DNA from: Escherichia coli
Lineage (GTDB): Bacteria; Pseudomonadota; Gammaproteobacteria; Enterobacterales; Enterobacteriaceae
Strand: one strand, 5' to 3'
DNA length: 39,846 nt
Assembly (NCBI RefSeq): GCF_003334335.1
Contig: NZ_QOWQ01000039.1
Shown here piece after piece: positions 21,816 to 23,340 of this stretch; the first letter of the stretch is position 1, and each line of letters begins with the position of its first letter. The translations under genes and the position numbers were made by a program. The notes under the pieces are model-generated. The model was not told where the DNA came from and made no database searches. It saw only the letters and a list, made by a program, of their open reading frames with translations.

Positions 21816-21860
21816 AGGGCAAAGCGGAAACGGATAAGACGGGCATAAATGAGGAAGAAA

Positions 21861-21937
21861 TGGCGCGCCCTGCAGGATTCGAACCTGCGGCCCACGACTT
21901 AGAAGGTCGTTGCTCTATCCAACTGAGCTAAGGGCGC
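21861..21937 (-). tRNA. argU: tRNA-Arg (anticodon UCU), argU
   Basis: Reverse complement reads GCGCCCTTAGCTCAGTTGGATAGAGCAACGACCTTCTAAGTCGTGGGCCGCAGGTTCGAATCCTGCAGGGCGCGCCA: full cloverleaf, anticodon loop CUUCUAAG, encoded CCA end. Confidence 0.95.
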
Positions 21938-22179
21938 GTTGATACCGCAATGCGGTGTAATCGCGTGAATTATACGGTCAACCCTTGCTGAGTCAATGGC
22001 TTTTGATCTGGTTGCTGAACAAGTGAACGACCGCGTCTGATTTTCTGATTTATTTCGCTATAGCGGCAAACAAACGCACACCGCTGCGCGTCTGAATCAA
22101 GAAAACCCGTATTTTCATGTATCAAAGTACAATTTCCCGACCTAACGGAAAATTGTCCGCTCCTATGAGACTGGTAACT

Positions 22180-22812
22180 ATGAAACCAACGTCGGTGATC
22201 ATTATGGATACTCATCCTATCATCAGAATGTCTATTGAAGTTCTGTTGCAAAAAAACAGTGAATTGCAGATTGTCCTGAAAACGGATGATTATCGCATAA
22301 CCATCGATTATCTCCGAACCCGTCCTGTTGATTTAATCATTATGGATATAGACTTGCCCGGAACAGACGGTTTTACCTTCCTGAAAAGGATCAAACAAAT
22401 CCAGAGCACAGTGAAAGTGTTATTTTTATCATCGAAATCAGAATGCTTTTATGCTGGCAGAGCGATACAAGCTGGTGCTAACGGTTTTGTCAGTAAATGC
22501 AATGATCAGAATGATATTTTTCATGCCGTTCAGATGATCCTCTCCGGATACACGTTTTTTCCCAGCGAAACGCTTAACTATATAAAAAGCAATAAATGTA
22601 GTACGAATAGTTCAACGGTCACTGTGCTATCTAATCGTGAAGTGACCATATTACGTTATCTGGTTAGCGGATTATCTAATAAAGAAATTGCCGATAAGTT
22701 ATTACTTAGCAATAAAACAGTTAGTGCGCATAAATCTAATATTTATGGCAAGCTAGGTTTGCATTCAATTGTAGAGCTTATCGACTACGCCAAATTATAC
22801 GAATTAATATAA
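22180..22812 (+). CDS. fimZ: Fimbrial regulator FimZ, LuxR/NarL-family response regulator (210 aa)
   Basis: ORF trimmed to ATG at 22180 (MKPTSVIIMDTHPIIRMSIEVLL...); receiver domain plus C-terminal LuxR-type helix-turn-helix. Confidence 0.9.
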   Translation: MKPTSVIIMDTHPIIRMSIEVLLQKNSELQIVLKTDDYRITIDYLRTRPVDLIIMDIDLPGTDGFTFLKRIKQIQSTVKVLFLSSKSECFYAGRAIQAGANGFVSKCNDQNDIFHAVQMILSGYTFFPSETLNYIKSNKCSTNSSTVTVLSNREVTILRYLVSGLSNKEIADKLLLSNKTVSAHKSNIYGKLGLHSIVELIDYAKLYELI

Positions 22813-22814
22813 TA

Positions 22815-23330
22815 TTAATTATAATTGATCATAAATATCGCATCCGCTTTCGCCACACCTGGCCGAACACCGCTGGCTAACGCTCGATAATTGGCAAAAA
22901 AGTTTAGTGTGACATTGCCATTTGCATCTACTTCCTCAGTCGGGCTCGCCTCCCCCAGTGCGAGCCGGGAGCGATCGCTATTACGTAATTCGATGGCGAC
23001 GGTTTGTGCCATTGCGGGATCATCCAGAGCCAGCAGGTTGGTATCGGATGCCGGCGTTCCCGTAAATAAAATCGCAACTGAACCCGGAGGACATCCCTCC
23101 AGCCGCAGGCTAAAAGGGACGAGTGCCGTGGTATCGCCAGCGTTCAGTAGTTGTGTCGTAGGCCATCTGCCTAAATCTACCGTCTTATCAATATCCGCTG
23201 TGTTTACGGTACAGGAGAAATCAACAACGTTACCGTGCAAATTGATATTAATCGTTCCTAAAGGGTCAACTGCCCATCCACTGGAACTCCACAGTAGCCC
23301 GCAGAAACAGCTAAAGAGTACTCTTCTCAT
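22815..23330 (-). CDS. sfmF: Fimbrial minor subunit SfmF (171 aa)
   Basis: ORF 22815..23525 trimmed to the ATG giving MRRVLFSCFCGLLWSSSGWA signal peptide; fimbrial subunit fold with C-terminal ...ADAIFMINYN. Confidence 0.85.
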   Translation of the reverse strand: MRRVLFSCFCGLLWSSSGWAVDPLGTININLHGNVVDFSCTVNTADIDKTVDLGRWPTTQLLNAGDTTALVPFSLRLEGCPPGSVAILFTGTPASDTNLLALDDPAMAQTVAIELRNSDRSRLALGEASPTEEVDANGNVTLNFFANYRALASGVRPGVAKADAIFMINYN

Positions 23331-23340
23331 TCTCCGTACC

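Follow-up and report, generated by a model that had tools for sequence, protein, structure and literature searches.

Base composition and inherited gene order probably explain the rare codons of fimZ and its argU neighbour in Escherichia coli

The stretch of DNA analysed here, which we call the window, comprises 39,846 nucleotides of an Escherichia coli genome (NCBI RefSeq assembly GCF_003334335.1, contig NZ_QOWQ01000039.1). The 5 kb of it that we tested match several complete E. coli genomes at 100%, and the 952 bases that carry argU and fimZ are also 100% identical to those of a K-12 derivative. The annotation of the neighbouring genes was taken from an identical genome (locus coordinates are window positions plus 501), and the gene order there is nfrB-nfrA-ybcH-envY, tRNA-Arg, fimZ, sfmF-sfmH-sfmD-sfmC-sfmA and folD. 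This E. coli cluster is written sfmACDHFZU in one paper, and in another, from mBio in 2013, a drawing of the sfm/fim synteny includes the tRNA-Arg genes. ARAGORN detected one tRNA in the whole window, a tRNA-Arg (tct) of 77 nt on the minus strand at 21861-21937, and RefSeq places a tRNA-Arg at the same position. It is argU, which has the anticodon UCU, decodes AGA and, by wobble, AGG (the two codons are here together referred to as AGR) and is the ortholog of Salmonella fimU. In K-12 argU is the sole UCU tRNA and is essential (PMC11480407). A near-consensus sigma-70 promoter for argU is predicted on the minus strand at 21969-21996, where a consensus scan found TTGACT and TATAAT with a spacer of 16 nt (11 of 12 matches); the 5' end of the mature tRNA follows about 31 nt after the end of the predicted -10 element.

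The fimZ gene (sfmZ) occupies 22180-22812 on the plus strand, as given by its ORF, translation, RefSeq annotation and Pfam hits, and encodes a 210-aa orphan response regulator of the NarL/FixJ type. The protein contains the Pfam domains PF00072 and PF00196 (a receiver and a GerE/LuxR-type helix-turn-helix), is named FimZ in RefSeq and shows 71-72% identity to Salmonella FimZ. Nearly all full-length FimZ orthologs are 210 aa long among those listed. An alternative in-frame start, ATG at 22117, would give 231 aa, and it was rejected: we take the start at 22180 to be right because all 17 orthologs of our set are 210 aa long and the similarity across genera begins 4 nt before this position. Divergently transcribed, argU and fimZ are 242 bp apart, measured from the tRNA 5' end (21937) to the fimZ ATG (22180), and 184 bp lie between the predicted argU promoter and the ATG. 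Only the part of this spacer at 21938-22030 is conserved with Salmonella, Citrobacter, Kosakonia and Scandinavium. The remainder, 22031-22175, is specific to Escherichia; blastn gave no similarity between it and the regulatory regions of Salmonella or Citrobacter. The promoter scan showed no consensus promoter upstream of fimZ. On the other side of fimZ, and convergent with it, the chaperone-usher fimbrial genes sfmF-sfmH-sfmD-sfmC-sfmA lie on the minus strand at 22815-28455. According to RegulonDB v12 and a 2025 review, Ogawa et al. 2022 (Genes Cells 27:657) reported that E. coli FimZ activates the sfm pili genes, as the original prediction had implied.

The original prediction had described fimZ as rich in rare codons, with 3 of 8 arginine codons being AGA or AGG, including codon 16, at least 6 ATA isoleucine codons, and the UCU tRNA gene about 240 bp away, and its counts and distance agree with ours. 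The eight arginine codons are AGA16, CGC39, CGA46, CGT48, AGG70, AGA94, CGT153 and CGT159. On the plus strand, the three AGR codons lie at 22225-22227 (codon 16), 22387-22389 (codon 70) and 22459-22461 (codon 94); they are thus dispersed, with one in the first 25 codons. ATA accounts for exactly 6 of the 23 isoleucine codons, within a span of 22297-22809 on the same strand (22297-22299, 22348-22350, 22465-22467, 22582-22584, 22648-22650 and 22807-22809, i.e., codons 40, 57, 96, 135, 157 and 210). It should be mentioned that ATA is decoded by ileX/ileY, not by argU (PMC2408971).

As a background for these frequencies we took 207 intact annotated genes (66,208 codons) of the same genome; they come from five regions, one around the window and four regularly spaced over the first 2 Mb of the chromosome. 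AGR makes up 37.5% of the arginine codons in fimZ versus 7.1% in the pooled background (binomial P=0.015), and ATA makes up 26% of the isoleucine codons versus 10.4% (binomial P=0.026), so that fimZ ranks 17th and 24th of 208, respectively. A frequency no higher than the genome average, which the original prediction had named as evidence against itself, is therefore not what this sample gives. In this genome, however, rare-codon use tracks GC3 tightly. Background genes with GC3 of at least 0.5 use 2.9% AGR and 4.7% ATA, while fimZ has a GC content of 36.7% (51.7% for the window) and a GC3 of 0.38. Logistic regression on GC3 gives for fimZ an expectation of 1.5 AGR (3 seen, P=0.17) and 4.2 ATA (6 seen, P=0.24), and the 22 GC3-matched genes pooled contain 22% AGR and 17% ATA. 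Moreover, the position-specific base frequencies of fimZ itself predict 53% AGR and 32% ATA, which is more than observed. Of the 37 AT-rich sample genes, 12 also have an AGR within codons 2-25, and genes of the lipopolysaccharide core, the O-antigen and islands, with similar or lower GC3, commonly contain 30-80% AGR and 25-50% ATA. The enrichment of fimZ relative to the genome is real, but it is accounted for by base composition, and it disappears once GC3 is allowed for. The five sfm structural genes show a slight excess, with 14 of 85 arginine codons being AGR versus 8.1 expected from GC3 (P about 0.04).

Much of this had been described before. García-Contreras et al. 2008 (PLoS One 3:e2394, PMC2408971) analysed the same fimZ gene, and their Table S4 lists ATA 6 (1.6 expected), AGA/AGG 2/1 (0.3/0.16 expected), CCC 2 and CTA 2. 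They also pointed out the neighbourhood of fimZ and argU and the control of FimY in Salmonella by fimU, the argU homolog. According to the same paper, Hha binds the argU and fimZ loci, represses argU 5.6-fold and reduces fimbriation, and YbaJ binds sfmH. The combination of a rare-codon fimZ, its argU neighbour and the fimU analogy has therefore been known since 2008. The difference from the present analysis is that their counts were set against the genome average only, whereas base composition and orthologs are considered here. In our literature searches we found no report of the FimZ level in E. coli under loss or excess of the tRNA or after codon replacement.

The position of argU was examined by comparing the locus among genera. 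In Salmonella, Citrobacter, Kosakonia and Scandinavium, too, fimZ is convergent with fimF at the end of fimA..F, next to folD. In E. coli and Salmonella alike the tRNA lies upstream of the fim regulators and divergent from them, and the two tRNAs share 74 of 77 bases, two of the three differences being a compensatory anticodon-stem pair (A-U to G-C). Outside Escherichia the order is tRNA-Arg(UCU) (divergent), fimW, the EAL gene stm0551, fimY, fimZ and the convergent fimF..fimA, with fimW or the EAL gene missing in some genera, and the tRNA is separated from fimZ by 1.7-3.1 kb and up to three genes. At 12 of 16 informative loci a tRNA-Arg(UCU) is found upstream of the fim regulators, in divergent orientation. 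All eight loci in which folD flanks fimA have it, while none of three relocated clusters (Cedecea, Enterobacter sp. and Buttiauxella) has one within 7 kb, which suggests that the linkage follows the chromosomal site and not the fim module. About 23% of 5,426 complete E. coli genomes keep the tRNA and about 104 bp upstream of it and have no fimZ, and the argU-fimZ junction is intact in 4,162 of the 5,426.

When E. coli or E. albertii is aligned with the other genera, the matches are confined to the tRNA and the 93 bp upstream of it, and to fimZ from position -4 onward. Thus the alignments indicate that Escherichia has lost fimW-stm0551-fimY together with the ancestral control region of fimZ, and it is because of this deletion that argU now abuts fimZ. 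The original prediction had spoken of the same arrangement as in Salmonella, and in this respect it has to be corrected. We also considered whether the 242-bp spacer holds a decayed fimY pseudogene, but tblastn and short blastn searches for remnants of fimY, stm0551 and fimW gave nothing better than E=0.35. Integration of the sfm cluster as an island at the tRNA is unlikely as well, because fimZ sits on the promoter (5') side of argU and integrases target the 3' ends of tRNA genes. On the 3' side of argU there is an empty site adjoining envY.

The AT-richness of the sfm-fimZ block had further been taken as a sign of an ancient horizontal origin. The strong AT-richness is in fact confined to fimZ (the sfm genes have 43-50% GC), and composition does not demonstrate such an origin. 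In all 10 orthologs for which GC was computed, fimZ has 36-43% GC, and the fim locus is old and found at the same position in at least five genera. Since fimZ is persistently AT-rich and the position is shared, composition alone cannot separate an old foreign origin from maintained AT-richness; ancient horizontal origin of the locus is plausible, and maintained AT-richness fits equally.

We then turned to the conservation of the rare codons themselves. The ortholog set consists of 17 non-redundant fimZ genes, from E. albertii, Salmonella, Citrobacter koseri, C. freundii, Cedecea, Enterobacter sp., Kosakonia, Buttiauxella, Scandinavium and, for the rest, seven distinct metagenomic relatives. 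Their DNA was obtained via protein matches, exact-sequence look-ups and one degenerate-DNA scan of metagenomes. A contig scan with the single E. coli FimZ protein had returned a true ortholog only from E. albertii, and the other matches were response regulators of 26-39% identity. Codon 16 is AGA in 13 and AGG in 4 of the 17 orthologs, and it is kept as AGR also in genomes that have no tRNA-Arg(UCU) nearby. At codon 70, AGR is present in 12 of the 15 orthologs having arginine there, and five orthologs of higher GC3 have AGR at codons 16 and 70 only. Codon 94 is AGR in merely 4 of 17 and is not conserved. Codons 39, 46 and 159 are always CGN, and at codons 94, 97, 107 and 153 the class changes between one and five times. 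The six ATA positions of E. coli are not common to the orthologs across genera; the only widely shared ATA is at codon 19, where E. coli has ATT.

Under a two-state model fitted to the eight other arginine sites on a neighbour-joining tree, the probability of no AGR/CGN switch at codon 16 is P=0.0014, and it rises to 0.016 once the switching rate is scaled for the slower 5' region. Codon 16 was chosen post hoc among nine arginine sites, and it lies inside a slowly evolving 5' block. Synonymous variability is 0.52 in codons 2-21 versus 0.77 in the rest (Mann-Whitney P=0.0006, for a contrast chosen after inspection of the data), and the parsimony steps per site are 3.1 versus 5.1. A sliding test for the least variable 10-codon window gave P=0.20 with 10 sequences and a borderline P=0.054 with 17. 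Within this block the non-rare neighbours CCT13, GTC15, TCG18, TCC5 and ATT8 are conserved as much as AGA16, and the GAGG of the Shine-Dalgarno region is conserved among the orthologs as well. At codon 16 the third base varies (AGA/AGG, 3 steps), while the first base is invariant. RNAalifold predicts around codon 16 a weak structure (-5.99 kcal/mol, covariation term -0.53, a single compensatory pair). An apparent inverted repeat, CTATYG..CGATAG, flanks AGA16 in many orthologs; it is broken in Escherichia, Salmonella, Kosakonia and the ortholog L166, and the idea of a conserved RNA structure at this codon was set aside. In our analysis around codon 16 we found neither a covarying structure nor a known binding site. 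Because codon 16 was picked after the fact among nine sites, this evidence is only suggestive that selection for rarity may have retained its AGR. The presence of AGA or AGG at codon 16 of all 17 orthologs is the one modest addition to the published picture.

The natural reference for a tRNA-dependent fimbrial regulator is FimY of Salmonella. Its gene is described as having AGA/AGG at five codons, with three of these located before codon 14, and without fimU, FimY production is said to fail and to be rescued by recoding of the first three of these codons (reviews PMC6527747 and PMC11316696, through which we cite Swenson et al. 1994 and Tinker and Clegg 2001). As far as these reviews go, the statement that an equivalent tRNA limits a rare-codon fim regulator in Salmonella is well founded. 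The AGR codons were verified in the Salmonella sequence as AGG7, AGA9, AGA14, AGA94 and AGA222, and Salmonella fimZ has AGA at codons 16, 94 and 97. E. coli resembles this system in that the tRNA is orthologous, stands at the same end and in the same orientation of an orthologous fim/sfm cluster, and is accompanied by AT-rich regulators with AGA/AGG codons. It differs in that the validated target, fimY with AGR at 7, 9 and 14, is deleted in Escherichia, along with fimW and stm0551. E. coli fimZ, moreover, has only one early AGR and no 5' cluster: it has neither three AGR within the first 14 codons nor rare codons beyond base composition, two of the marks of FimY-type control. In the 2019 review, which cites Tinker and Clegg 2001 (PMC6527747), fimU deficiency affected the expression of FimY only, and FimZ is not among the proteins there reported as affected, despite the AGA codons of Salmonella fimZ. 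The distance between tRNA and fimZ differs too, being 242 bp in E. coli and about 2.7 kb in Salmonella.

Other systems are comparable in concept. In Streptomyces, the bldA tRNA-Leu(UUA) gates a few regulatory genes through the rare codon TTA, likewise a rare-codon tRNA acting on regulators. Housekeeping genes there hardly use TTA, and the bldA tRNA is non-essential and developmentally regulated. In E. coli, by contrast, AGA is spread over the whole genome, and argU is essential. A closer case is leuX (tRNA5-Leu) and FimB in uropathogenic E. coli, in which, according to papers citing Ritter et al. 1997, a minor tRNA limits a fimbrial regulator rich in its rare codon. There, however, the codon is TTG and the regulator is the recombinase of the fim switch; these citing papers present the effect as shown experimentally, and leuX as dispensable, unlike argU.

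Taken together, we put a rough probability of 0.7 on the reading that the rare codons of fimZ are a consequence of its AT-richness and that argU is its neighbour by inherited synteny, which a deletion specific to Escherichia has tightened. At this locus the well-known sfm cluster of E. coli (Salmonella-like fim) ends, and an AT-rich orphan regulator gene, fimZ, meets a housekeeping tRNA gene, argU. The AGA/AGG and ATA codons are mainly those expected of an E. coli gene with 37% GC, a by-product of base composition with no special enrichment, and such a composition is typical of silenced fimbrial regulator genes bound by Hha/H-NS. The neighbourhood of argU reflects the inherited gene order of an enterobacterial folD-fim-tRNA-Arg locus, in which argU and fimZ became immediate neighbours only through the loss of fimW-stm0551-fimY in Escherichia. 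Only the scarce argU tRNA reads AGA, so that FimZ synthesis should in principle be somewhat more sensitive to its supply than the average. While composition and gene order are shown here, it is from the three dispersed AGR codons and the absence of FimY that we infer any effect of the tRNA on FimZ to be modest and not a dedicated switch. The conserved AGR at codons 16 and 70, the AGR excess of the sfm genes, the widespread tRNA-fim linkage and the repression of argU by Hha leave room for a real but secondary tRNA effect.

The main rival explanation, which by analogy with Salmonella would make FimZ translation limited by tRNA-Arg(UCU) through the AGA/AGG codons, especially AGR16, so that changes in argU (for example its repression by Hha) would tune FimZ and then the sfm pili, seems to us unlikely. 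Translational control of FimZ by the tRNA is the idea of the original prediction and also of García-Contreras et al. 2008. AGA and AGG are reportedly most inhibitory near the start of a gene (Chen and Inouye 1990/1994), which is in its favour. AGR in all 17 orthologs at this codon and in most at codon 70, a linked tRNA at 12 of 16 loci, the fimU-FimY precedent, the binding of Hha to both argU and fimZ with repression of the former, and the reported activation of sfm by FimZ all speak for it. However, the rare codons do not exceed what composition predicts, one AGR in the first 25 codons compares with three in 14 for FimY, and the reviews attribute to fimU loss an effect on FimY only, though Salmonella fimZ has its own AGA codons. 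Furthermore, AGR16 is retained in genomes without a nearby tRNA, codons 2-21 are slow at synonymous sites as a block, and argU is an essential gene of global role, not a dedicated regulator. A stronger form of the idea seems quite unlikely: that selection has kept codon 16, and less so codon 70, rare across Enterobacteriaceae whether or not a tRNA is nearby, as a translational checkpoint that would couple FimZ, and through it the Salmonella-type fimbriae, to the available tRNA-Arg(UCU) and make FimZ besides FimY a target of the fimU/argU type.

The slow 5' block can also be read as a constraint that acts at the nucleotide level on the first ~20 codons of the fimZ mRNA, in which case AGR16 would have been kept for reasons other than rarity; an open A-rich initiation region or a site for a protein or small RNA would be candidates. 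We regard this as possible, if somewhat short of an even chance. The lower synonymous variability and fewer parsimony steps of codons 2-21, the equal conservation of ordinary neighbour codons and the conserved GAGG fit it, and the weak predicted structure would agree with selection for a start region free of structure. But the third base of codon 16 changes and the first never does, codon 70 is mostly AGR though it lies outside the block, and the searches for a covarying structure or a known binding site came back empty. Finally, the adjacency of argU and fimZ might work at the level of transcription, through a shared AT-rich control stretch bound by Hha/H-NS that would co-regulate the tRNA and the regulator, which we consider highly improbable. 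The reported binding of Hha at argU and fimZ and of YbaJ at sfmH is in line with this, as are the divergent predicted argU promoter 184 bp from the fimZ ATG and the report that complementation of argU requires its chromosomal context or a strong promoter (PMC11480407). Against it, the close spacing is specific to Escherichia and comes from a deletion, in other genera the tRNA and fimZ have as many as three genes between them, and the same 93-104 bp upstream of argU are present in genomes without fimZ.

The value of this analysis is mainly corrective. Inherited order and composition appear to account for the tRNA neighbour and the codon signature, the Salmonella target is missing, and the idea itself had been published before. 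If FimZ translation were nevertheless dependent on argU, the rare-tRNA economy of the cell, to which Hha, prophage-borne tRNAs and the burden of AT-rich foreign genes belong, would be tied to a cryptic adhesin system of E. coli, and the classic Salmonella mechanism would be extended to a second regulator.

The 3' side of argU, the tRNA-Arg(UCU) gene at 21861-21937 (- strand), is bordered by envY, with only 45 bp (21816-21860) between the envY stop codon and the tRNA 3' end. This side is a classic site of prophage integration, where DLP12 resides in K-12, and it is empty in the window. An uninterrupted envY-argU-fimZ order is seen in 2,389 of 5,426 complete E. coli genomes. Moreover, when 21861-22041 was compared with the same 5,426 genomes, approximately 23% were found to retain argU together with about 104 bp upstream (93-94% identity) and to lack fimZ. 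Many E. coli genomes also contain a second partial match, which probably stems from duplication of tRNA fragments at the ends of prophages.

The spacer between the tRNA 5' end and the ATG of fimZ (21938-22179) is reduced in Escherichia: fimW, stm0551 and fimY are all missing from E. coli and E. albertii, as is the ancestral fimZ upstream region of roughly 600 bp. Alignment with Salmonella and Citrobacter is confined to the tRNA and its adjoining 93 bp, and to fimZ starting at position -4; the stretch between them (22031-22175) is lineage-specific in this comparison and contains no detectable gene remnants. No consensus sigma-70 promoter was found upstream of fimZ. A weak terminator-like hairpin, with a 5-bp stem and a T-rich tail, lies upstream of the argU promoter (22074-22090, - strand). 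It could insulate argU against antisense transcription from fimZ, or it may be a chance match, since two such hairpins were found against 0.8 expected.

An alternative in-frame ATG at 22117 would extend fimZ by 22117-22179 to an ORF of 231 aa, bringing in one extra AGA, and P0002, a small cluster of 11 proteins, uses this ATG. However, the 210-aa length is conserved in all 17 non-redundant fimZ orthologs examined, and the GAGG ribosome-binding site is conserved as well. Both features disfavour 22117, and from this comparison of sequences we argue for a translation start at 22180.

In the sfm structural genes (sfmF-sfmA, 22815-28455, codon counts pooled), AGA or AGG accounts for 14 of 85 arginine codons, compared with 8.1 expected from third-position GC (P about 0.04), while ATA shows no deviation (13 observed, 13.3 expected). 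Within fimZ itself, synonymous variability across the 17 orthologs is markedly lower in the first 20 or so codons than in the rest of the gene (0.52 versus 0.77, P=0.0006). Codons 2-21 (22183-22242) include the near-invariant block CCT-ATY-GTC-AGA-ATG-TCG-ATA-GAA, and a search for conserved RNA structure there turned up none that was convincing. Complete fimA-F/fimZ/fimY/fimW clusters are also present in Cedecea, Enterobacter sp. and Buttiauxella (L088, L089 and L091, respectively), at chromosomal sites without flanking folD and with no tRNA-Arg(UCU) within 7 kb; fimZ of all three still carries AGA at codons 16 and 70.
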